This document shows, piece after piece, positions 7,497 to 58,071 of a DNA stretch of 64,000 nt. Numbering within the stretch: position 1 is the stretch's first letter; each line of letters opens with the position of its first letter. The stretch is taken from assembly GCA_964518965.1 (NCBI GenBank), contig CAZFJP010000003.1:25508-89507 (forward strand), in the 5' to 3' direction. The notes below the pieces were generated by a model that worked only from the letters and a program-made list of their open reading frames with translations, had not been told where the DNA came from and searched no databases. The DNA is from an uncultured Candidatus Saccharibacteria bacterium (GTDB lineage Bacteria > Patescibacteriota > SOKK01). The translations under genes and the position numbers were made by a program.

Positions 7497-7609
7497 TTTT
7501 AGATGCAAAATCCAAAACGTAAAACGCAAAAGCTGTGGTATAATTTGTAGGAGAGCCTTGTTCAGAAGGTTACTTTGTGTTTTGCCTTTTGAATTTTGAG
7601 TTTAATTTT

Positions 7610-8596: not shown

Positions 8597-8713
8597 GGGT
8601 TCGTAGCTCAGTTCCCGCCAGAGGCATGCTCCTGAGGCGCATTCGCCCTCTGGTGAAGGTCCGTCTTTGGCGGAGGTTACCTGCCTGCCGGCAGGCAGGG
8701 AGTGCCTCGTTTT
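8597..8713 (+). pseudogene. Duplicated tRNA-Val 5' fragment (nt 1-17) plus a 100 nt structured GC-rich insert, immediately upstream of the intact tRNA-Val(TAC)
   Basis: GGGTTCGTAGCTCAGTT occurs at 8597-8613 and again at 8714-8730. The intervening 100 nt contain two hairpins: CCGCCAGAGG...CTTTGGCGG, and the perfect palindrome CCTGCCTGCCGGCAGGCAGG. Confidence 0.6.
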
Positions 8714-8790
8714 GGGTTCGTAGCTCAGTTGGTTAGAGCGCCTCGTTTACACCGAGGAGGTCAGAGGTTCAACTCCTCTCGAACCCACCA
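8714..8790 (+). tRNA. tRNA-Val(TAC), CCA encoded
   Basis: GGGTTCG pairs with CGAACCC. Anticodon loop TTTACAC. T-arm AGAGGTTCAACTCCTCT. Confidence 0.85.
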
Positions 8791-8926
8791 TGCTCTGCAG
8801 AGCAAACTTAAAAATTAGAACGTAAAAGTTAAAAGAGAAATTCCGGTTTATGCTATAATAGATACGATTTTGTGAGATATTGCTGCATTGTTTTAAGTTT
8901 TACATTTTACGTTTTAATTTTGAAAT

Positions 8927-9002: not shown

Positions 9003-9101
9003 CTAAACAACTTAAAACTTAAAAATTAAAACGTAAAAGCTAAATCCAAAAGACCCGAATTTACTTTTTAAGTTTTACGTTTTAACTTTTGAGTTGTTTA
9101 C

Positions 9102-28444: not shown

Positions 28445-28633
28445 AGGATAAAGGCAAAAATCAAAAATAAAAATACAAAATTGAATTAAAAAGATAAAAA
28501 TTCAAGCGTCTGTGTTTTACTTTTTCTAACTAAATAATATCTTATTTTACCTTTTACATTTAATTTTGCTTTTTGCCTTTTGCATTTTGAATTTCTGCCA
28601 AAGGCAGATTCATTATAGCTTCTTTTGAAGTAA

Positions 28634-28680: not shown

Positions 28681-29778
28681 CTAGATGAGCGGCAGGCCGC
28701 ACTTTTCGCAGTGGACCGTACCGATGGGGTAACATACTCCACAGAGGGGGCACCATGGCCCTGTGTGCTCCTCGCCGGGGGCGATGAGTTCTCCGCACCT
28801 GAGACAAGTTGGCGGCTTGGGCGGGGGAGGAGGAATCGGTTCCTCCCCCTCAATTTCTCGTGCTACTTCCGCCCGAAGAATTGCTTCGGGGGAAGAGCTT
28901 TTTACCTCTGCCTCCTCCTCACGGATAATTTGGGTAAGAACTCTTTTGATTTTATCCGTGAGTTCTTCTCTCTCTTTCCCTTCACTTACACCTTTGTTGT
29001 AGATATCCTCAAAGGTGCAATGGAGAAAGAAGAGAATGATGCCGCTTTCCGAGTCCTGATCTTTGTTGTCATGAAGATAGACTCGGAGGGCATTTAAGAG
29101 CCTTGCGCTGAGGTTTTCGAGGAAGAAGCGCACCTCGCGCTCAGTTTTTTGGGGAAGAATTGTTGTTCTTTTGCCCCTCGCGAGCGCAAGGAGCTCGGTG
29201 CAGTATTTCTGGCAATTTTCCCGGGACAAACTGCGGGCGATTGTCCCGGCTGGCTCCCTGAGGTATCTGAGCAGGGAAGGAAGGTCTTTGATTAGACCAT
29301 CTTCGCCCTGCGCCATCAAGAAGCCCAACAGGCTAGTGGCCTGCTGGTCTGGAGGGGAGCCACAGGTATGTTGCCAGAGGATCACTAGTTTCTCTAGGGG
29401 GGATTCCTTGGGGATGCCGTTTTGCTGGTTGACCAGCTCTCTCAGTTCCTGGTCGAGAAGCGGGAGTTTTGACTTCGGCGTAGTGGTCAGGTAGAGGATC
29501 GTTATGATCCTCAAAAGCGAAATCCCCCAAAAGGATTCGCTTACTCGTTCATTAAGAACGAGTGAAGCAATCCCGTGCCGAACAATCCCAGCGTCGGTTT
29601 TGTTTAGGAGCTCTTTAAGTGCTGGCACAAGCTCTTCCTTAAAGCGCCTTTCGGCTTCCCTCCGGTCTATCAAGCCGAGGCGCATCTTGGCGCGGATTTC
29701 ATTTGTGCCGGTTAAGATGTCCGTTGCAACTGAAACGAAATCCTCGCTACTTATCCTAGAGTTTTTATTCTCTGGCAT
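28681..29778 (-). CDS. Hypothetical protein with a C-terminal double zinc-ribbon (GC-rich island)
   Basis: The C-terminus has four CxxC motifs (CLRCG...CPLCG...CEKCG). About 52% GC against a 38% background. Overlaps the upstream gene by 28 nt. Confidence 0.5.
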   Translation of the reverse strand: MPENKNSRISSEDFVSVATDILTGTNEIRAKMRLGLIDRREAERRFKEELVPALKELLNKTDAGIVRHGIASLVLNERVSESFWGISLLRIITILYLTTTPKSKLPLLDQELRELVNQQNGIPKESPLEKLVILWQHTCGSPPDQQATSLLGFLMAQGEDGLIKDLPSLLRYLREPAGTIARSLSRENCQKYCTELLALARGKRTTILPQKTEREVRFFLENLSARLLNALRVYLHDNKDQDSESGIILFFLHCTFEDIYNKGVSEGKEREELTDKIKRVLTQIIREEEAEVKSSSPEAILRAEVAREIEGEEPIPPPPPKPPTCLRCGELIAPGEEHTGPWCPLCGVCYPIGTVHCEKCGLPLI

Positions 29779-30419
29779 ATTGTTGACTCCACCTCCTTCC
29801 AGGTGGTTTCGATAACTACTGCCGCGAGAGGCGGCAGCGAGTTGTAGATTTCGTTGATTTCCGCTCGCGCGATTTCTACGATCAGTCCCCGCATACTCTC
29901 GTTATGCCAAGTGATTTCGGACGGTAACGCAATTGGCTGGTGGACTGATTGGGATGTTCCTTTGGGGAGGGCGAGAGGAGTGATGGTTTTGGGAGGAAGA
30001 GCTAGTGGGTATTCCTTTTTGTGAGGTTCTATCTTTTTTTCTTCGAGTTCGAGCTTCACATTCTCATTCTGATGTTTCTCTTCCTCGAGATCAAATTCGT
30101 CCACCTCAACATTTACCGGTTTGGGTAGAAGGACTTCCTTTATCCATTCTGCTAATCCCGGTATTATGAGGTGTATGATTTCAGGTTGAGGAGGTTGAGG
30201 AGGAAAAGTGAATTCAATACGAACAGGAGGGCAAAGAGTGCATTGGATGCACTCTCCCGTTTTTGGTCCGAAAACAACTTTTTTCGGTTCCGCAAAGTCA
30301 TCAGGATACAACTCTCGCGGAACCTCGCGGAACCGGACACCCGCTTTTCGCAAAGTGTCTTCGATAATGGTAATAGTCCTGTCTCCCGCAGGGACAGAAC
30401 CATTTTTATCGCTTGCCAT
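29751..30419 (-). CDS. Hypothetical protein (GC-rich island)
   Basis: 222 aa with a CIQCTLCPP motif and Pro-rich and acidic repeats. Minus-strand promoter: TTGACT-17 nt-TAAGTT near 30470-30500. RBS is GGAGG. Confidence 0.45.
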   Translation of the reverse strand: MASDKNGSVPAGDRTITIIEDTLRKAGVRFREVPRELYPDDFAEPKKVVFGPKTGECIQCTLCPPVRIEFTFPPQPPQPEIIHLIIPGLAEWIKEVLLPKPVNVEVDEFDLEEEKHQNENVKLELEEKKIEPHKKEYPLALPPKTITPLALPKGTSQSVHQPIALPSEITWHNESMRGLIVEIARAEINEIYNSLPPLAAVVIETTWKEVESTICQRIKTLG

Positions 30420-33482: not shown

Positions 33483-33552
33483 AATCTGAAAAACTGCGTC
33501 TGTAGGCGGTTTTTTTAATGTAGTTCTCATGGATATAGTGTCGCATTAAAAA

Positions 33553-33590
33553 TTGACTTAAAATTTAATGTTTGATATCATATCAACGTA
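33553..33590 (+). promoter_or_regulatory. Sigma70-like promoter with an overlapping palindromic candidate ArsR operator
   Basis: TTGACT (33553-33558), 17 nt spacer, TATCAT (33576-33581). The palindrome TGATATCATATCA overlaps the -10. A second half-site ttgatatgata lies downstream. Confidence 0.45.
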
Positions 33591-33607
33591 AATTGATATG
33601 ATAAATA

Positions 33608-33934
33608 TTGATTATGGAAAATATTCCTTATTGTCGAAATAAACTAAAATCAAAAAATAATTTTCAAGAAGCAATTGAATTTTTAAGAATTATTAATGAA
33701 CCAAATCGTTTGAGAATTATTTATTTTTTGAATTACGGCGAACAATGTGTTTGCAATATTCGAAAGTCCTTGAATATTTCTCAAAACCTTACTTCTTATC
33801 ACCTCAAAACCTTGAAAGATTTTGGTTTAGTTGATTCCAGGCAAGAGGGTAAGAAGATCATTTACTCGTCAAACAAAAAATTTATGAAAAAATGTATTTC
33901 ACTTTTAAATAATTTTTTAATTTTAAATTTATGA
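33608..33934 (+). CDS. ArsR/SmtB family transcriptional regulator
   Basis: wHTH region: NRLRIIYFLNYGEQCVCNIRKSLNISQNLTSYHLKTLKDFGLV. Confidence 0.7.
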   Translation: MIMENIPYCRNKLKSKNNFQEAIEFLRIINEPNRLRIIYFLNYGEQCVCNIRKSLNISQNLTSYHLKTLKDFGLVDSRQEGKKIIYSSNKKFMKKCISLLNNFLILNL

Positions 33935-34194
33935 AAATTCAAGTTTTGGGTTCGGGTTGTGTTACTTGCGAGAATTTGCATAAGACAGTTGAAGAAGTAG
34001 TCAAAAAATTAAATCTTGATTTGAAGGTGGAATATTCTACAGATATTACTAAAATTGTTGAAATTGGTGCGATGGGTAGTCCTGTTTTTGTAATTGATGG
34101 AAAATTAATTACTGCGGGTAAAGTGCCTTCCGACAAAGAAATCGAAAAAGCCATTTTAGAGAAAATGAAAAGGAGTATGCTAGAAAAAAAATAA
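33931..34194 (+). CDS. Small thioredoxin-fold protein (redox-active disulfide protein 2-like)
   Basis: 87 aa. A CVTC motif near the N-terminus. GSPVFVIDGKL. Confidence 0.6.
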   Translation: MKIQVLGSGCVTCENLHKTVEEVVKKLNLDLKVEYSTDITKIVEIGAMGSPVFVIDGKLITAGKVPSDKEIEKAILEKMKRSMLEKK

Positions 34195-34251
34195 TCATTG
34201 CAGAACAGTTGTTTTCGCGGTGGAAATTATTAATAATTTTTTAAAAATAAT

Positions 34252-34722
34252 ATGAACAAAAAAATAATCGCTCCATCTCTTTTGTTAATTTTTTTATTAC
34301 TTACAGTCTTTTTGATGGGTTGTGATAATCAATCAAACTTTCAGGGTTCTGGAAAAAATACTCTTTCCGATTCAACCTCTGAGATTTCAAAAGCTGAAAG
34401 AGTTGAAGTAGTTTGTTTTTATGGGACCCATCGTTGCATTTCATGTAAAATTGTTGAAGAGTATGCTAAAAAAACTCTTGAGGAATTTTTTCAATCAGAA
34501 CTCCGAACTGGCAAAATCACATTTAAATCTATTAATATTGAACTTCCTGAAAACCGCGATATTGTAGTAAAATATCAAGCTCGCGGATCATCACTTTTTA
34601 TCAATGCGATTAAAGATGGAAAAGATAATATTTCAGAAGATGTCGATGTTTGGTATTTGACTGGTGATGAACAGGCTTACAAAGAATATTTCAAAGAAAA
34701 AATTGAGAAAATTTTAAATTAA
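34252..34722 (+). CDS. Lipoprotein with a thioredoxin-like CxxC motif
   Basis: Lipobox LMGC. A CISC motif in VVCFYGTHRCISCKIVEEYAKK. Confidence 0.5.
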   Translation: MNKKIIAPSLLLIFLLLTVFLMGCDNQSNFQGSGKNTLSDSTSEISKAERVEVVCFYGTHRCISCKIVEEYAKKTLEEFFQSELRTGKITFKSINIELPENRDIVVKYQARGSSLFINAIKDGKDNISEDVDVWYLTGDEQAYKEYFKEKIEKILN

Positions 34723-34726
34723 CTCC

Positions 34727-36415
34727 ATGGGAAATTTTATTGCGTCGTTAATTGATACTTATAATATCCCACTTCTAACAGCATTTTTGCTGGGAATTTT
34801 AACTTCCATTAGCCCCTGCCCGTTAGCAACCAATATTACGGCAGTCGGGTTTTTATCAAAGGATATCAAAACTGCCAAAAATACTCTTTTGAACGCACTT
34901 TTTTACATCATCGGACGGGGCATTTCTTACACTTTGCTGGCGGGTCTAATTTATTTTGGAATTTCCTCTTTTACGGTTTCGGGAATTTTTCAGGGGTGGG
35001 GAGAAAAACTACTTGCGCCTGTTTTGCTTATTATGGGATTTTTTATGCTTGGGATTTTTAAAATAAATTTACATTCTCAGGATGATAAATGGGAGAAATC
35101 TAAGCAATGGCTTTCTAAGAAAGGATATTTAGGGTCTTTGGGGCTTGGAATGATTTTTGCTTTAGCCTTTTGCCCCTATAGTGGTGTATTATTTTTCGGG
35201 ATACTAATGCCGCTTATTTTAAAATCAGCGAGCGGATTTCTTCTTGCTTCTCTTTTTGCTCTTGGCACAGGCCTACCAGTTGCGGTTTTTGCTGTATTGA
35301 TGGTCTTAAGTCTTCAAAAAATGAGTAAAATATACCGTATCACTCACAAGGTGGAAAAATATCTACGCTATATTGTCGCTTTTATCTTTATCGGGGTCGG
35401 TTTATATTTTCTTATTAAATACACATTTGGTATTGAGGATTTTGATATTTTTTATCCCTTTGCGGCGTTGGCAAACTGGTTGACATTTTCAGTTTTGGGT
35501 ATTAAGCAAGGTTCATATCTTGGCAGTAGTGTAGAATTTTTTCTTTATGATGTTCTTAAAATTTTTGCACTTATGCTGGTAATTGGTTACTCCATGAGTG
35601 CACTTCGTTATTATCTCCCCATTGAAAAGTTACGTAATTTTTTAACCAGAAGAAAGCTCTATGGACTTGATTATTTTTTTGCTGCTATTTTTGGAGTAGT
35701 TACTCCTTTTTGCTCTTGTTCCTCAATCCCGCTTTTTGTTGGATTTTTAGAAGCTCGAATTCCGCTCGGAGTTACTTTTACTTTTATGATCACTTCCCCG
35801 TTGGTTAATGAAGTGGCTATTGTTCTTTTACTTGGTATTTTTGGTTGGCGAATAATGGTATTCTATGTTATTGCAGCGATTTTAATTGGGATGGCGGGGG
35901 GATTCGTTTTAGGTAAGCTTAAAATGGAGAAGTATGTTGAGGATTTTGTTTGGAAAATTCATACTCCAAAGCAAAATCCGAAAGAAATTAAAAGAGAACC
36001 ATTTATAAAAGTATTTCCCCAACTTTCACGGGAGGCACTTGGGATAATCAAAAAAATCGCCCTTTATATTATTATTGGTGTTGGAGTAGGAGCATTTATT
36101 CATGGTTATGTTCCAGAGGGATTTTTTGAGAAATACTTGGAAAATACCGGCTTTTGGAGTGTGCCTCTCGCGACAATTTTAGCGGTGCCAATGTATGCTA
36201 ATGCTAGTGGAGTTATTCCTGTTATTCAATCATTAGTTGCGAAAGGCATTCCTCTTGGTACGGCTCTTGCTTTTATGATGGCGACCGTCGGGCTTTCATT
36301 ACCCGAAGCGCTGATTTTGAAAAAAGTTCTCAAGTGGAAACTTCTTGCGGCATTTTTTGGATTCGTAACAGTTGGAATTATTTTAATTGGTTATGTATTT
36401 AATTTTTTATTTTAA
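34727..36415 (+). CDS. Fusion membrane protein: N-terminal CcdA/DsbD-like thiol-disulfide transporter domain plus C-terminal DUF318/UPF0718 (ArsP-like) permease
   Basis: N-terminal SPCPL motif in TM1 with about 6 TM helices. The C-terminal half carries TPFCSCSSIPLFVGFL and about 8 TM helices. Confidence 0.55.
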   Translation: MGNFIASLIDTYNIPLLTAFLLGILTSISPCPLATNITAVGFLSKDIKTAKNTLLNALFYIIGRGISYTLLAGLIYFGISSFTVSGIFQGWGEKLLAPVLLIMGFFMLGIFKINLHSQDDKWEKSKQWLSKKGYLGSLGLGMIFALAFCPYSGVLFFGILMPLILKSASGFLLASLFALGTGLPVAVFAVLMVLSLQKMSKIYRITHKVEKYLRYIVAFIFIGVGLYFLIKYTFGIEDFDIFYPFAALANWLTFSVLGIKQGSYLGSSVEFFLYDVLKIFALMLVIGYSMSALRYYLPIEKLRNFLTRRKLYGLDYFFAAIFGVVTPFCSCSSIPLFVGFLEARIPLGVTFTFMITSPLVNEVAIVLLLGIFGWRIMVFYVIAAILIGMAGGFVLGKLKMEKYVEDFVWKIHTPKQNPKEIKREPFIKVFPQLSREALGIIKKIALYIIIGVGVGAFIHGYVPEGFFEKYLENTGFWSVPLATILAVPMYANASGVIPVIQSLVAKGIPLGTALAFMMATVGLSLPEALILKKVLKWKLLAAFFGFVTVGIILIGYVFNFLF

Positions 36416-36551
36416 ATAAAATTAAGGCGAAAAAGATTAGAAATAAATATCCAGTGAACGAGATGGTAGAGTGCTAGATGGTGTTAATTTGGGACATAAA
36501 CAAACTCTCCTGAATTTCTAAACACATTTCTAACATTGTCTACGACTGCCT

Positions 36552-36658
36552 GCCAGCCCAAATTTCATCAATGATATTAATCAAGATAAACTAAATCTCA
36601 TAAGCAATTTTATTTTTAGTGGTTCTTGATTAACCTTAATGATGAAACTTGGGCTGGC
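36552..36658. repeat. Palindrome of the 'TTTCATCATTGA...AATCAAGA' family (copy B), at the boundary of GC-rich island 2
   Basis: gccagcccaaatttcatcaatgatattaatcaagat ... cttgattaaccttaatgatgaaacttgggctggc. Confidence 0.6.
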
Positions 36659-36747
36659 TTGCCATTTAAATCAGGTCAAAGGTAACAGGTTAAAGGTCAA
36701 AGATAATAAATCCGGAAACTTTGATCTTTGCCCTTTAACCTTTAACC

Positions 36748-36772
36748 TTCTCCGAGAGGAGCGGTTTTTTGT
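36748..36772 (+). terminator. Possible rho-independent terminator (short stem, T7 run)
   Basis: CTCC-gaga-GGAG-cgg-TTTTTTG. It is preceded by a longer hairpin: ggttaaaggtcaaag...ctttgatctttgccctttaacc. Confidence 0.35.
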
Positions 36773-36904
36773 TTGACCTTTTCCTTGGTTTATGTTATTG
36801 TAGCTTGTCGCTTTGCGATTTTGTCAAAGAGCGATTGTACCTTTAACTCAACAATAAATAAACGGTTTATTAACAGTTTTCATAGTCCTAGGAGGCTGAT
36901 TGGC

Positions 36905-38287
36905 ATGAAATGGATTATCGCTGTTTTACTGGTAGCGAATGCCGCTTGGGGGTATCTTATCCCCCAGACAGGCGAATTGGATGTCGACGGGGTAACTCTC
37001 GTCATTGGCGCGGAAATAAACAAACCGGACGGGGAAGATCCCCGAAAGTTAATCGGGAGTGTCTTGGACGCGGATAGCGGCCGGTCATTTGAGGTGCGGG
37101 AGAAGATCGCCAATGCTATTAAAGCGGCGGAGATCTCTCCGGAACTGGATGACCAAGAAGGTCGTTGGAAGCGGGCCAAGGATGCGGTCAAGGATTGGGA
37201 AGATCGCTTGGCACTTGCTCGCGCTTTCAAGGACGAGCTGGCGAGGCATGCTACTACGGCAGCGGTATATTTTTCCATGGACCCGGCTCAGTATGAGCGA
37301 ATGCCGGATCCCTTCGGGGCAATCCAAACACTCTTGGATGACTTTAACGACCGTGTTGCCGACATTATGGCAACCGATCCTAAGCTCCTTGAGGGTGTCG
37401 CGGCTAGTTTAATGGCATTGCGCCGCAATGCCGATCAGTTCCCCAAAGGTCTGAATAAGGATGTTGAGAAGTGTTGGGGGATTCTTATCGGCGAAGGGAA
37501 ACATCCGGAGTGGTGGGACGAAGACGTCAAAGCGGTCGCTTTAGCTGCGGAGGCGAAAAATCCCCTGCGTGAGACTAAGCCCGCTGTTGCGACGGCTCTC
37601 CCATCGCCGGTTAAGGAAACCCCTGTGTCTGTACCCGCGCCTACGCCTTCTACTCCGGTCCCAACGCTGGAAGTTGATCTCGAAGAAGCCGGGATTCTAC
37701 CTCCGCCAGAAGAAAAGTATAATAAAGAAACATCTCCTCCGGTTGAGGAAAATACGACGACTGTCGCAACGGAAGTTACTTCTTCGACTGAAGTGGTTAC
37801 GACAGAAACGTCTGTGACCTCGCCGGAAGTAGTAGCGACTAAAACGACGGAGGCGCCGACCGAATTTGTATCGGTAGAAGAACTGACAGAAGGAGTATCC
37901 GAATCTTCAGAACCTCCTTCTGCCGAATACTCGGTAGCGGACTTTCGGCGGTTAGACCTAAGCTCCAAGAGCGCTGTCGTTGACGTCATCGCCAAAAAGG
38001 AATCCTGGTCCGATGCGGATTACGAAATTATTTTCCTCTCGTTAGGATTGAATGACGATCCTAACGACGAGATTGCCGCGAAGACCTGGGAAGTAATTTG
38101 CGCTCGCTATCGCGGGTCGCAGACCTCCGAGCGGGAAGTGATTCTTGCTAAGGTGCGGGAATTCCGAAATCAAAACAACCGGAAGTTTTCTTCCCGTAGA
38201 TGTGACTTCCTGCTCAAGTATCTCGAAACTCTAAATAAACCGTTTATCAAAAAGCCCTCCCCCGGGAGGGCTTTACTCTCTTGTTAG
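36905..38287 (+). CDS. Secreted acidic protein with a Thr/Ser/Pro/Glu-rich linker (GC-rich island 2)
   Basis: The start is placed at MKWIIAVLLVANAAWG (signal peptide), with RBS TAGGAGG 8 nt upstream. The ORF track starts earlier at 36773. About 55% GC. Confidence 0.5.
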   Translation: MKWIIAVLLVANAAWGYLIPQTGELDVDGVTLVIGAEINKPDGEDPRKLIGSVLDADSGRSFEVREKIANAIKAAEISPELDDQEGRWKRAKDAVKDWEDRLALARAFKDELARHATTAAVYFSMDPAQYERMPDPFGAIQTLLDDFNDRVADIMATDPKLLEGVAASLMALRRNADQFPKGLNKDVEKCWGILIGEGKHPEWWDEDVKAVALAAEAKNPLRETKPAVATALPSPVKETPVSVPAPTPSTPVPTLEVDLEEAGILPPPEEKYNKETSPPVEENTTTVATEVTSSTEVVTTETSVTSPEVVATKTTEAPTEFVSVEELTEGVSESSEPPSAEYSVADFRRLDLSSKSAVVDVIAKKESWSDADYEIIFLSLGLNDDPNDEIAAKTWEVICARYRGSQTSEREVILAKVREFRNQNNRKFSSRRCDFLLKYLETLNKPFIKKPSPGRALLSC

Positions 38288-38432
38288 TTAAGCTAAAATT
38301 AACTGCCAAGAGCGTAAATTGGGCAATTCTAACAAGTTGGAACAGTTAAAAGTGTTTTTTGTAGGTAGTCATTGGGTGAATCAAAGATTTCTGGTGAGGA
38401 AAATCGGAAGCAAAATTACTGCAAAATTACTC

Positions 38433-38627
38433 TTGACAAGTTTCATAAGATGTGCTATACTCTTTGGTCAGCCCGGAAACTAATAGAAAAAAAGCGCGTA
38501 TTCAAGCGAAAATACTCTCTTCTTTCTGTTAGTTTTAGGGTAAAACCTAGGGCTAAACAGCGTACCAAACTCAATACTCAATCCATTATCCATTCAACTC
38601 CCCTAAGCAGGGGAAGGAGGTTCAGCC
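38433..38627 (+). promoter_or_regulatory. Promoter (TTGACA-17-TGcTATACT) plus about 160 nt conserved structured leader; copy 1 of a duplicated cassette
   Basis: About 90% identical to 39441-39625 through the RBS and into the signal peptide. Contains hairpin CCCCTAAGCAGGGG adjacent to the RBS GGAAGGAGG. Confidence 0.55.
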
Positions 38628-39323
38628 ATGCGTTACTTAGTTATCGTTTTAACCCTCTCCCTGCTCTGCGCGGGGAGCGTGTTGGCGGAGACGACCTACC
38701 ACCATTGCGACCCCTTCACGGCCGGCCACTTGGTCGACGTGCCGGGTGTCGCGATGGCTTTGGTCCAAGGCGGTATTCCCGCCGGGACCGAGCCGTCTAC
38801 CCTTAAGAAGTTTTTAGAGGAGGGGGGCGTCAACGAAAAAATTCTTGAGGGATTTTTCGCCCAGGCCGATAAGGTCGGGGCGCCGATCCCAGAGGGACTC
38901 CACTCCTGGGCTTCCGTTGCGCCGGTTTTTATCAAGGCGCTAGAAGGCGGCAAAGTCGAAGTCCAGGAGATCAGCTACGGTGAAGTGATGTGGTGGGTCG
39001 GCTATGTGCCGAGTCACCCGATTAACGCCGTAGCGATTTTAACCCCCCCGCACTACTGGGCACTCGACTATCTTTTGCGGGTGTACGTTGTCCGCGGGGT
39101 TATAGTCGAGGTCGCAGGGGAGAAAGCCGAGTTGTTTATCGGTTTCATGGAGCCCTGCGGGAACTTAGTGTTCCTCGGCGGGGAAATCCTCGAGGAACCC
39201 GAGCCCGGGGTCGGTCAAAAAGGTCCGGCTCCGGGAAAGCCGCTGAAGGTCGGCAACAAACCGATCCGTAAGCCCATTATCGGGCATGAAAACTGGGTCG
39301 GTCCCTCCTTCGGCGGACCGTAA
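38628..39323 (+). CDS. Secreted hypothetical protein (paralog 1, shares signal peptide MRYLVIVLTLSLLCAGS)
   Basis: ORF with signal peptide and RBS GGAAGGAGG. GC-rich. Confidence 0.5.
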   Translation: MRYLVIVLTLSLLCAGSVLAETTYHHCDPFTAGHLVDVPGVAMALVQGGIPAGTEPSTLKKFLEEGGVNEKILEGFFAQADKVGAPIPEGLHSWASVAPVFIKALEGGKVEVQEISYGEVMWWVGYVPSHPINAVAILTPPHYWALDYLLRVYVVRGVIVEVAGEKAELFIGFMEPCGNLVFLGGEILEEPEPGVGQKGPAPGKPLKVGNKPIRKPIIGHENWVGPSFGGP

Positions 39324-39440
39324 CGCCAACAACGCCAACACAAACTGCCCCTCCTGAATCGCAAGATTCGGAGGGGCTTCTATCCTTTTTTGACTAAGCA
39401 ATTATTCAATTATTCAAAAGAGGCGTAGAATCAACTACTA

Positions 39441-39625
39441 TTGACAACTTGTCTACTTTATGCTATACTCTTTGGTCAGTCCGGAAACTAATAGAAAAAA
39501 GCGTGTATTCAAGCGAAAAGGTACTCTCTTCTTTCTGTTAGTTTTAGGGTAAAACCTAGGGCTAAACAGCGTACCAAAAAACTCAACCCATTCATCTCCC
39601 CTAAGCAGGGGAAGGAGGTTCAGTC
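39441..39625 (+). promoter_or_regulatory. Copy 2 of the promoter plus conserved leader cassette
   Basis: TTGACA (39441-39446), 17 nt spacer, TATACT (39464-39469). The leader is near-identical to copy 1. Confidence 0.55.
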
Positions 39626-40483
39626 ATGCGTTACTTAATCGTTTTAACCCTCTCCCTGCTCTGCGCGGGGAGCACGTTTGCCGACCAAGGCGCCGGCGAG
39701 GATCCGTATCAGGACCTCTCGGCGACCAATCTCGCGGAACTGGACGCATTTGCGTTCGGGCCCATGCGGGAGCCGGACCGGGCAGTTTCTTTCTACGTTT
39801 CGCACTTAACGCGGGACGAGAAAGAATATCTCGGGACGGAGTACGAGCAGAATCTTCGGATTCTCTCGGAAACGTTCGGGATAGGGCTTGACCCTTGGCG
39901 GGACGACCGCTATGGGTTCAAGTTCGGAGCTTCCGTTACGGTACAAGATTTACTGTCGCGTAACAGCTCCGGCAAATCCTATCCCCTCGGTTTCGTGAAA
40001 TTCCGTCCCGTTTATTTCTGGAAGTTCTATGACGGGATGAACGACGGTTCGGTCGGAGATCTCGAAATCGGGTGTAGCGGTTTATACCGCTGGACCCGTT
40101 TCACGGATCTACCCGACACGGTTAAACCCGGCGCCGCTGTGGAACCGACCTTACAGGTTCGGTACCGCAGCGAACGTTGGGGCGTTTCGGCGATGGGAGG
40201 TTATTTGTATAACATCCAATCGAACCAGCACGAAGATTTCGTGCAGGGTAGAACGGATCTGTTCTGGCTCTGGGGTAAATCCTTGAGTCATGAGGTTAGC
40301 TCCTCCCTCGGCGTTGGCTATTTTAGGGCCACCGAGGGCCGCGACTATGCCTTAATTCCGAGTGTGACGCTCACGGACACCCTCTGGGATACCGTCGAGC
40401 TGACCGCCGGATACGACGCGGGACTGGTACAACATCGGCTTTATGCCAACACCTGGCGCTTCGGCGCTGGCGTTGCCTTCTAG
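39626..40483 (+). CDS. Secreted hypothetical protein (paralog 2), possibly beta-rich, outer-membrane-like, ending in a C-terminal aromatic residue
   Basis: Same signal peptide (MRYLIVLTLSLLCAGS). The mature part diverges. Ends ...GAGVAF. Confidence 0.5.
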   Translation: MRYLIVLTLSLLCAGSTFADQGAGEDPYQDLSATNLAELDAFAFGPMREPDRAVSFYVSHLTRDEKEYLGTEYEQNLRILSETFGIGLDPWRDDRYGFKFGASVTVQDLLSRNSSGKSYPLGFVKFRPVYFWKFYDGMNDGSVGDLEIGCSGLYRWTRFTDLPDTVKPGAAVEPTLQVRYRSERWGVSAMGGYLYNIQSNQHEDFVQGRTDLFWLWGKSLSHEVSSSLGVGYFRATEGRDYALIPSVTLTDTLWDTVELTAGYDAGLVQHRLYANTWRFGAGVAF

Positions 40484-40510
40484 CTTCATGCTAGCGCCGA
40501 CGACATCAAA

Positions 40511-40552
40511 GGGAACCTGGACTTTTAGTTCGGGTTCCCTCTACATCTTTTC
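40511..40552 (+). terminator. Possible terminator
   Basis: GGGAACC...GGTTCCC hairpin followed by a T-rich tract. Confidence 0.35.
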
Positions 40553-40625
40553 CTGCTAAAACTAAATTAACAGTAAGAGATGTAGCGTTTCATTATTTAT
40601 CCATAAATTAATTAAAAGGAAAACT

Positions 40626-44134: not shown

Positions 44135-44339
44135 GAATACATAGGATAAAATCAAAAAGCAAAAATCAAAATGCAAAGGTAAATGTAAAAGGCAGGATTA
44201 AAGTATTATTAGAGTTGAAGAAAGTAAAACGAGAGAATCCCAATTTTTGCATTTTGTTTTCAATTTTGCTTTTTGCCTTTTGCGTTTTGCTTTTTAGCAA
44301 TGCTTATGTTATAATGTCTTGTGCTTAATAATTAAAATA

Positions 44340-57443: not shown

Positions 57444-57494
57444 CGGGGATTGGCCCAGTTTCCGCCAGGGGCGGATGCGCCTCTGGCGCACACC
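57444..57494 (+). pseudogene. tRNA-Pro 5' fragment (nt 1-17) plus double-hairpin module (copy 1)
   Basis: CGGGGATTGGCCCAGTT, then TCCGCC-agg-GGCGGA, then TGCGCC-tct-GGCGCA. Confidence 0.55.
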
Positions 57495-57530
57495 TTAGTT
57501 TATCTACATAATTTTTAAAGAAGGGACTAA

Positions 57531-57791
57531 ATGTTTTTTGTCTATTTTTTGAGAAGTAGAAAGAATCGGAAGATTTATACTGGAATGACAGCAAAGATAC
57601 CTTGTGAGAGATTAAAGGAACATAATTTAGGATCGAACAAATGGACGAGAAAAAATGGACCATTCAGTTTGCTCTATTATGAGAAATATTTCTGCAAAGC
57701 TGATGCTATGCAAAGAGAAAGATTTTATAAATCGGGGTTTGGTAGAAAAATCAGAGATTCAATTATTGTTGCTTTAACAAGATTTCAATGA
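57531..57791 (+). CDS. Stand-alone GIY-YIG nuclease family protein (UPF0213/YazA-like)
   Basis: FFVYFLRS.KNRKIYTGMT......RLKEHNLG...WTRKNGP..LLYYEKF......A..RE...K motif pattern in an 86 aa protein. Confidence 0.6.
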   Translation: MFFVYFLRSRKNRKIYTGMTAKIPCERLKEHNLGSNKWTRKNGPFSLLYYEKYFCKADAMQRERFYKSGFGRKIRDSIIVALTRFQ

Positions 57792-57876
57792 GAATAGTTA
57801 GTATTTTAGAGAGCAAGCCTGATTTCTCCGCCAGGGGCGGATGCGAAATTTGGTTTTTCTTTTATAAACTATTTTC

Positions 57877-57993
57877 CGGGGATTGGCCCAGTTTCCGCCA
57901 GGGGCGGATGCGCCTCTGGCGCACACCTGGCGTATCTCTGGTGCACAGGATGTGTTTTAAGATTTACTCTTTCTTTTATCAAGTTATTTTTTC
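57877..57993 (+). pseudogene. tRNA-Pro 5' fragment (nt 1-17) plus double-hairpin module (copy 2), immediately upstream of the intact tRNA-Pro(GGG)
   Basis: Identical 47-mer CGGGGATTGGCCCAGTTTCCGCCAGGGGCGGATGCGCCTCTGGCGCACACCT. A third partial copy of hairpin 1 lies at 57827-57845. Confidence 0.55.
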
Positions 57994-58071
57994 CGGGGAT
58001 TGGCCCAGTTGGTCTAAGGCGCACGCATGGGGTGCGTGAGATCGTGAGTTCGAATCTCACATCCCCGACCA
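57994..58071 (+). tRNA. tRNA-Pro(GGG), CCA encoded
   Basis: CGGGGAT pairs with ATCCCCG. Anticodon loop ATGGGGT. T-arm GTGAGTTCGAATCTCAC. The D-stem has one mismatch. Confidence 0.7.

Follow-up and report, generated by a model that had tools for sequence, protein, structure and literature searches.

A promoter, leader and signal-peptide cassette duplicated in front of two unrelated secreted proteins of an uncultured Saccharibacteria bacterium

Two neighbouring genes of an uncultured Candidatus Saccharibacteria bacterium, coding for secreted proteins that we name A and B, begin with the same DNA: a promoter, a long leader, a ribosome-binding site (RBS) and a signal peptide, placed in front of mature proteins that are unrelated to one another. 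They belong to a stretch of 64,000 nucleotides (nt) (contig CAZFJP010000003.1 of assembly GCA_964518965.1, positions 25,508 to 89,507), the whole of which is called the window below, its first letter being position 1. The duplication of this block, or cassette, is confirmed; its leader carries a conserved RNA structure, supported by compensatory changes, and this RNA, absent from Rfam, is new. We lean, if only slightly, towards seeing in the cassette a modular device for expression and export, which combines a strong promoter, a 5' structure that probably stabilises the messenger and a Sec signal, and which is homogenised by recombination. In uncultured bacteria of the candidate phyla radiation (CPR, or Patescibacteria) almost nothing is known about the control of expression or the building of the surface. 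The locus offers there a testable native strong promoter with a covariation-backed 5' untranslated region (5' UTR), hence a candidate RNA motif and possibly an expression tool. It also suggests that, in such genomes, the modules for regulation and export have evolutionary histories separate from those of the mature modules, and it provides two orphan secreted proteins, one of them probably a transmembrane-type barrel, which are good candidates for contact with a host.

The duplicated cassette

The direct duplication covers window positions 38433-38678 and 39441-39673, that is from the -35 hexamer to codon 17 in copy A and codon 16 in copy B, where homology ends (~38678 and ~39673). The copies are identical at 213 of 233 aligned non-gap positions (91.4%, or 83.5% with gaps counted), in agreement with an earlier note on this DNA, made from its letters alone, which had described two copies about 90% identical from the -35 hexamer to codon 17. 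Identity is far from even along the block. Between the -35 and -10 hexamers it is 72%, the hexamers and the TG being the same and the spacer different; it rises to 95% from the end of the -10 hexamer (38462/39470) to ...GTACCAA, with an exact run of 57 nt, falls to 38% in a C/A-rich linker that contains an 11-nt indel, reaches 97% through the hairpin CCCC-TAAGCA-GGGG, the AAGGAGG motif and the ATG, and is still 94% over codons 2-17. The flanking 100 nt are at background identity on both sides (32% upstream, 43% downstream), so that the edges of the duplication are sharp. The mature proteins had been said to be unrelated, and indeed BLASTP finds no match between them better than E = 2.8. The other features first read from the letters are present as described: the extended -10 TGcTATACT, the CCCCTAAGCAGGGG that abuts AAGGAGG, and MRYL(V)IVLTLSLLCAGS as signal peptide. 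The leader, put at about 160 nt and found long, measures 156-166 nt in the two copies. There is no third copy in the 64-kb window.

Of 30 promoter-like sites in the window, the two best are those of the cassettes (TTGACA, 17 nt, TG-n-TATACT, each an 11/12 match plus the TG), and their -35 and -10 hexamers are invariant in eight of eight homologous cassettes; the transcription starts used here were predicted from the position of the -10 hexamer. Each of gene1 (the gene upstream of A), A and B is followed by a strong terminator hairpin, which makes A and B separate transcription units; the pair of hairpins of gene1 (38252..38316) lies upstream of cassette A, outside the duplicated sequence. A strong Shine-Dalgarno (SD) sequence, AAGGAGG, stands with a 7-nt spacer in front of the open reading frame (ORF) of the signal peptide, and the motif that joins it to the preceding hairpin (H3) is likewise invariant in the eight cassettes. 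Reading of the signal peptide of cassette A finds no lipobox: the Cys of ...SLLCAGS is not kept, being replaced by Leu, Ile or Phe-Val in the other lineages, and a site of the signal peptidase I type (VLA/TFA) comes after it. Table 1 gives the coordinates.

Table 1. Features of the locus, in window coordinates
Feature	Position	Strand	Description	Basis
gene1	36905..38287	+	460-amino-acid secreted low-complexity (T/S/E/V/P-rich) protein; N-terminal signal MKWIIAVLLVANAAWG	
Terminator hairpin of gene1	38252-38273	+	second hairpin 38274-38316	terminator scan; fold z = -4.1
Cassette A promoter	38433-38461	+	-35 TTGACA 38433-38438; 17-nt spacer; TG 38453-38454; -10 TATACT 38456-38461	11/12 match plus extended -10
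Cassette A 5' RNA domain	38466..38566	+		minimum-free-energy (MFE) folds, RNAalifold, compensatory changes; covariance model R1, 98 bits
Cassette A helix P0	38466-38468 / 38564-38566	+	GGU with ACC; closing helix of the 5' domain	
Cassette A hairpins H1 and H2	38477-38535; 38536-38549	+	H1 long, irregular; H2 small	folds
Cassette A linker	38567..38598	+	C/A-rich, almost G-free; variable; local duplication ACTCAAT ACTCAAT	
Cassette A H3, SD and start	38599..38630	+	CCCC 38600-38603/GGGG 38610-38613; AAGGAGG 38614-38620; 7-nt spacer; ATG 38628-38630	sequence
Signal peptide A	38628..38687	+	MRYLVIVLTLSLLCAGSVLA; predicted signal peptidase I site after VLA	translation
Hairpin H5 in A	38657-38664 / 38670-38677	+	CTCCCTGC / GCGGGGAG; inside signal-peptide codons	
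Mature A and stop codon	38688..39323	+	211 amino acids, orphan family	
Terminator hairpin of A	39347-39377	+	second hairpin 39378-39430	fold -39.8 kcal/mol, z = -7.2
Cassette B promoter	39441..39469	+	-35 TTGACA 39441-39446; TG 39461-39462; -10 TATACT 39464-39469	promoter scan
Cassette B 5' RNA domain	39474..39575	+	P0 GGU 39474-39476 with ACC 39573-39575; H1 39485-39544, then H2	folds; R1, 98 bits
Cassette B linker, H3, SD and start	39576..39628	+	CCCC 39598-39601/GGGG 39608-39611; AAGGAGG 39612-39618; ATG 39626-39628	sequence
Signal peptide B	39626..39682	+	MRYLIVLTLSLLCAGSTFA; H5 at 39652-39659 / 39665-39672	translation
Mature B and stop codon	39683..40483	+	orphan family; ends ...RFGAGVAF	
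Terminator-like hairpin after B	40510..40540	+		fold z = -4.3

A conserved RNA structure in the leader

Both leaders of the window fold into a long irregular hairpin, H1, just past the predicted start (z ~ -2.6). Conservation of hairpins had been noticed by eye, and the covariation analysis then proposed was carried out on an alignment of eight leader sequences from four lineages, with an effective sequence number of 1.62. RNAalifold finds in it H1 with 22 pairs, a small H2, H3 before the SD and a further hairpin, H5, within codons 10-17. Pairing is kept in 97.5-97.7% of the cells, compared with 46-63% when the 3' partners are slid by one to three columns. Both sides of the pair have changed in 8-9 pairs, five of which belong to H1 and one to the helix of the 5' end, and the covariation score observed was reached by none of 500 shuffles. 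The double changes thus back the pairing of H1. Several of its positions are G-U pairs on the + strand, and on that strand only, and it follows that the pairing is that of a sense-strand RNA, not of a DNA palindrome. H1 had also been considered as a DNA operator and was rejected, its arms being 33-36 nt apart and its G-U pairs becoming A-C mismatches on the other strand.

The remaining helices are of several kinds. In five of the eight sequences folded singly, the GGU at the predicted 5' end is paired with a conserved ACC that lies beyond H2; a G-C pair of this helix, P0, becomes A-U in the B leaders of two lineages (L005_B and L009_B), as seen in the alignment, not in the folds of those two sequences. 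H3 and H5 are invariant in all eight, the synonymous positions of H5 included. Some unpaired or bulged bases of H1 are just as constant (AAAGCG.G.AUU on its 5' side, ACUCU on its 3' side, in eight of eight sequences).

None of this matches a catalogued family. The search of Rfam suggested in the earlier note gave no match for 38433-39680 with Rfam 15 at gathering thresholds, and at E <= 10 it returned nothing relevant, only a patAB-leader on the opposite strand at E = 8.

Relatives and evolution of the cassette

Beside the window, three lineages code for A and B, as seen from the contigs that encode them: L003, L005-L008 and L009-L012, the last two co-occurring in the same four samples. The relative represented by L003 is about 72% identical to the window at the nucleotide level, with the same order gene1-A-B-DUF11-amidase. 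In every lineage both A and B have the cassette, namely promoter, a leader of 134-237 nt, CCCC(N)AAGCAGGGG, AAGGAGG and a related signal peptide. L009 and L010 are the same over 2011 nt, after which L009 passes into DUF11 with ~26 codons missing from the end of B, along with its terminator (L009 2054-2146); this reflects either a deletion or an assembly error.

Further carriers were sought with exact-pattern scans. The pattern of the RBS hairpin has no match in GTDB (one genome per species) and none in viral contigs, and in metagenome contigs it retrieves the known lineages, one more homologue of B (L034) and three chance matches. The promoter pattern has 18 matches in GTDB genomes, mostly CPR (Moraniibacteriota, Uhrbacteria, Saccharibacteria, Parcubacteria); covariance model R1 finds the leader RNA at none of these 18 loci, which show only that this type of promoter is common in CPR genomes. 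A 45-amino-acid profile, used to look for other proteins with the signal peptide of the cassette, found only generic signal peptides, and carries little weight since it missed even known members of the family. No further copy in front of another secreted protein, a check that the earlier note had proposed, turned up in the window, in 19 kb of a relative or at the 18 other CPR loci. A different block recurs in several Moraniibacteriota genomes (L014 4139-4260, L022 2499-2640, L024 2883-3010 and, on the - strand, L027 near 1863-1900): it has a GCAGTTT..GATGTCAA.ATTGTCGCAA box upstream, the same type of promoter and a 5' hairpin, GTCAAnnnGAGAAnnGGnTTCTCG, ahead of unrelated small ORFs, and it may be another reused promoter-leader cassette of CPR bacteria.

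How the copies relate to one another is instructive. Within a genome the paralogous cassettes are 94-97% identical in the window and 89-93% in L003, while orthologues of the window and L003 are at 77-90%; paralogues being closer than orthologues, the cassettes must have undergone concerted evolution. The A and B leaders of L005 and L009 are only 69% identical over their 5' halves, but the RBS and signal-peptide parts are at 90-100% among the four copies. Between these two lineages the cassettes are at 95-98%, while mature A, mature B and the 5' part of DUF11 are at 61-72%, the mature parts being at about 62%. The mature parts of L009, however, group with those of the window and L003 (71-81%), leaving L005 as the outlier. 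Since the groupings of cassette and mature parts disagree, the two have had separate histories; the breakpoints between them fall upstream of the promoter and where the signal peptide ends. Every contig of the L009 type stops inside the shared block. Window and L003 are 79-80% identical in the cassette and 76-77% in coding sequence, the spacer upstream of the promoter being at 63% of aligned bases and 12% with gaps counted. A leader more conserved than the coding sequence, as had been claimed, is thus what one sees between paralogues and between L005 and L009; it is not what one sees between the window and L003. The alternative also offered in the earlier note, a cassette for recombination, has fared well: as judged from these alignments, the cassettes evolve in concert and recombine independently of the mature coding parts.

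What the cassette may do

In the reading that we slightly prefer, the cassette would supply four things: the strongest sigma-70-type promoter of the window; a 5' UTR whose first ~100 nt would make a closed domain (H1, H2 and a short helix on the predicted 5' end); an unstructured C/A-rich linker, then a small hairpin (the GC clamp) with a strong SD after it; and a Sec-type signal peptide. Being common to both genes, it would cause A and B, which probably act together, to be made at the same high level and in a coordinated way. The 5' domain would mainly stabilise the messenger RNA and favour translation, keeping the RBS available, rather than sense a ligand. As for the ~250 nt that the two copies share, they would provide homology for gene conversion and for the swapping of mature parts, and gene conversion would keep the two cassettes alike.

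Several observations weigh against this view. H3 and H5 never vary and for this reason bring no covariation evidence; the structure itself is drawn from eight sequences of four lineages, with the low effective number given above, and the counts of cells overstate the number of independent events because gene conversion can copy the two arms of a stem together. H1 starts ~11 nt after the predicted start, so that protection of the 5' end rests on a helix of 3 base pairs (bp). Since the cassette is no more conserved than coding sequence between the window and L003, its conservation may be partly due to recombination. Finally, the bulge and loop bases kept in H1 (AGCG..AUU, CUCU) are not needed by a stabiliser and could be the site of a regulator.

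Four other explanations were weighed; by decreasing weight they are a site for a regulator, a handle for recombination, a riboswitch or thermometer, and a functionless duplication. The first is possible though unlikely: the 5' domain would be recognised in trans by either a small RNA or an RNA-binding protein such as RNase III, which would switch A and B jointly, for example upon contact with a host cell, stabilisation then being secondary. The presence of the same element on both genes suits co-regulation, H1 contains the invariant unpaired bases described above, and a helix of ~22 bp is long enough for a double-strand-specific nuclease. However, no candidate gene for a regulator is linked to the locus, a model search of the window found no complementary sequence resembling a small RNA, and concerted evolution of a few lineages also explains the conserved loop bases.

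Somewhat less likely again is that the cassette serves mainly as a DNA homology block for swapping mature modules, as in surface or antigenic variation, the RNA structure being incidental. The mosaic made by L005 and L009 speaks for it, with 90-100% identity in IG1 plus cassette A, in cassette B and where DUF11 begins, but 40-75% in the three mature parts. So do the discordant groupings, with a breakpoint where the signal peptide ends, and the contigs of the L009 type that stop in the shared block; the raised G+C content at third codon positions (GC3) of these genes (see below) would fit GC-biased gene conversion. Yet both copies have complete promoters, hence there are no silent cassettes; no gene for a recombinase lies within ~10 kb; the direct repeats flank a single gene, and the order A-B is fixed in all lineages. 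Pure recombination would, in addition, leave unexplained the compensatory changes and the strand-specific G-U pairs of H1.

A sensor acting in cis, such as a metabolite riboswitch or an RNA thermometer gating translation or transcription, is very improbable, even though the leader is long and structured (z ~ -2.6). The segments CUCCCC, GCAGGGGAAGGAGG, CUCUCCCUGC and GCGGGGAG can pair in two mutually exclusive ways; the alternative pairing, which buries the SD, is the MFE fold for copy B and for L005, and the four segments are invariant, synonymous sites included. An open/closed switch of this kind, seen by eye and in some MFE folds, was nevertheless dropped because, in 200 synonymous recodings per sequence, recoded signal-peptide codons bury the SD just as often. 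The probability that the SD is paired, P(SD paired), is 0.5-1.0 as observed and averages 0.72-0.88 in the recoded controls, a fraction of 0.07-0.81 of the recodings pairing it at least as much. What does differ is the total fold energy, which lies a little below that of the recodings (the fraction at or below the observed value being 0.01-0.125), an effect of hairpin H5.

The 5' domain consists of one hairpin (0 branch points), without a multi-helix junction, and there is no conserved terminator after H1: H1 was rejected as the terminator of an attenuator, the U-run after it not being conserved. A leader peptide fares no better, and no conserved upstream ORF exists. Six of the eight leaders have no ATG, the sole ATG lies within a lineage-specific insertion, and frame-breaking indels in the leaders run counter to a leader-peptide attenuator. 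In L005_B and L009_B only, a perfect to near-perfect hairpin of 110 nt interrupts the C/A-rich linker of the B leader (L005 2330-2440; L009 1175-1285), and the length of the linker varies in all lineages, leaving the distance between the 5' domain and the RBS unconstrained. Tolerance of a 110-nt insertion at this place makes a compact sensor coupled to the RBS unlikely. As an aside, this hairpin resembles a small palindromic insertion element. The riboswitch, thermometer or small-RNA target that had been proposed for the leader is therefore left unsupported, with no Rfam family even at E <= 10, SD pairing that does not exceed that of the recoded controls, and the insertion just described.

That the duplication be recent and functionless, or an artefact of assembly, as might be suspected from a three-gene block that is a 3.9-kb contig of its own in another sample and differs from its flanks in base composition, is hardly conceivable: conservation across lineages refutes it, the identical sequence is found in independent JGI, ENA and NCBI assemblies, the two-cassette layout is kept in four lineages that are 60-80% identical elsewhere, and the edges of the duplication match functional boundaries (the promoter, the end of the signal peptide).

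Comparable systems

The design has counterparts, so that a known principle is here extended to a new lineage and nothing is overturned. In Borrelia the block shared by the genes of the upstream homology box (UHB) / Erp family is mainly a promoter and operator for DNA-binding regulators and not a folded 5' UTR of ~100 nt. The analogy, one of design only, is that of a common promoter and leader peptide before unrelated mature proteins, with recombination. The Erp genes code for lipoproteins and sit on numerous cp32 prophage plasmids, whereas there are here only two tandem chromosomal copies. In Borrelia burgdorferi, nearly the same promoter region and leader peptide introduce surface proteins of the UHB / Erp (OspE/OspF-related) family whose mature parts are unrelated, and recombination between members is on record (PMC7002432); Marconi 1996, Akins 1999 and Sung 2000 are reported to deal with these genes as well.

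Another counterpart is found in mycoplasmas, where, as here, a conserved 5' UTR and signal-peptide region is found on otherwise unrelated genes (vsp, vpma, vsa). In Mycoplasma agalactiae vpma and M. bovis vsp these regions are highly conserved and the remainder is without significant homology; the loci have one active promoter and silent copies, with an Xer-type tyrosine recombinase next to them; the sites of recombination lie within the 5' UTR, and the products are lipoproteins (PMC2268961). Unlike them, both copies of the present cassette have promoters and lack a lipobox, and no recombinase domain was found in the genes within ~10 kb, in the window or in L003.

With Lactobacillus slpA, Escherichia coli ompA and Bacillus subtilis aprE the cassette has in common a strong promoter, a long 5' UTR, a stem-loop that would lie near the predicted 5' end and a strong, presumably exposed RBS ahead of a protein with a signal peptide, and stabilisation would be a further likeness. 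For S-layer slp messengers, high expression is put down to a strong promoter together with a stem-loop of the 5' UTR, by which the transcript is stabilised and the RBS left exposed (PMC10221546), and ompA and aprE figure among the 5' stem-loop stabilisers listed in PMC3997798. Those leaders, by contrast, are single-copy, and they have no relation to the cassette in sequence or in Rfam. A block that spans upstream DNA and 5' coding sequence, with divergent coding sequence after it, also brings to mind the sap genes of Campylobacter fetus. There several genes have a conserved upstream and 5' coding block which serves as homology for recombination, the coding sequence then diverging; there is a single invertible promoter, secretion is of type I and no signal peptide is cleaved.

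Proteins A and B and their surroundings

Both proteins are orphans, each with 4 clusters among 5.8 billion proteins, and Pfam and NCBIfam give nothing for A, B or gene1. A phage origin of the three genes was considered and rejected, there being no PHROG match. For A, AlphaFold2 yields a model with a mean predicted local distance difference test (pLDDT) of 63, with which a fold search of the PDB found no match. The profile of B retrieves only its own cluster from 1.84 billion representatives, and AlphaFold2 gives it 12 long antiparallel strands, if at low confidence (pLDDT 58). With Foldseek, PDB ranks 1-30 are all outer-membrane barrels; the best-fitting folds are 12-stranded (FapF, autotransporter beta-domains, OMPLA, COG4313), with template modelling (TM) scores of 0.44-0.58 and E values of 1e-6 to 1e-4. 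Three of the four homologues end in ...GAGVAF and the fourth in ...GIGVSF. On the strength of the model, B is probably a 12-stranded beta-barrel of the outer-membrane type.

This would be unexpected in an organism that otherwise looks single-membraned. The DUF11 neighbour, 1149 amino acids long, ends in a sortase-type C-terminal anchor, which points to a single-membrane envelope, and no genes for outer-membrane assembly were seen among the ~30 window proteins scanned. A role of B at the interface with a host is speculation. One may go further and imagine an episymbiotic CPR bacterium that uses A and B as a pair to interact with its host: B would insert itself as a 12-stranded barrel into the outer membrane of a diderm host, or be a barrel of a kind so far unknown in the bacterium's own envelope, with A as its partner, the leader as a new regulatory RNA switching them together and the cassette as a handle to swap exposed parts and evade recognition by host or phage. 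This scenario is distinctly improbable.

The window has ~39% G+C and harbours many tRNA genes, the tmRNA and the RNase P RNA. Its proteins mostly fall outside curated families, wall domains of Gram-positive type (G5, DUF348, CHAP, Amidase_2) being present. Against this background gene1, A and B stand out as a G+C-rich block, their GC3 being 53-71% (53% for gene1, 71% for the gene of A) as against about 30-37% in neighbours, and the same contrast in all four lineages. The first gene of the block, gene1, has a promoter and leader of its own, unlike those of the cassette, and is syntenic in L003 and L005. The block as a whole is syntenic and not a recent import; an old transfer, codon selection or GC-biased conversion are possible causes of its high GC3. 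In another sample, window 36743-40601 forms a separate contig of 3859 bp (L001) with exactly the same ends.

Other observations along the window

A second G+C-rich pair of genes lies on the - strand at 28681-30419, coding for proteins of 365 amino acids (GC3 59%) and 222 amino acids (GC3 45%). It is syntenic with L003 756-2443 and has no match in Pfam, NCBIfam or PHROG. Compared with L003, the window also has a 3.3-kb insertion of low G+C content between tRNA-Trp and gene1 (33483-36760), the cargo of which is a DsbD_2/ArsP_1 fusion permease (34727-36415) and a lipoprotein-like ORF of 156 amino acids.

Several small repeats are associated with tRNA genes. An exact direct repeat of 52 nt (57444-57495 and 57877-57928) starts with the first 17 nt of tRNA-Pro (57994-58071) and flanks an ORF of 86 amino acids for a GIY-YIG nuclease (57531-57791; Pfam E = 9e-15): the whole, 57444-57928, looks like a small mobile GIY-YIG element next to, or inserted into, a tRNA gene. 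The same motif as beside tRNA-Pro is met at 8597-8690, where a truncated 5' end of tRNA-Val, GGGTTCGTAGCTCAGTT, is followed by CCCGCCAGAGG... in a G+C-rich structured segment, just upstream of the intact tRNA-Val (8714-8790). Most tRNA genes, as well as several intergenic regions, are bordered by families of A+T-rich repeats of 30 nt (TTTTAAGTTTTACGTTTTAA-like, together with the complements), as for example at 7574-7603, 8804-8833, 9015-9044, 28565-28594 and 44265-44294.

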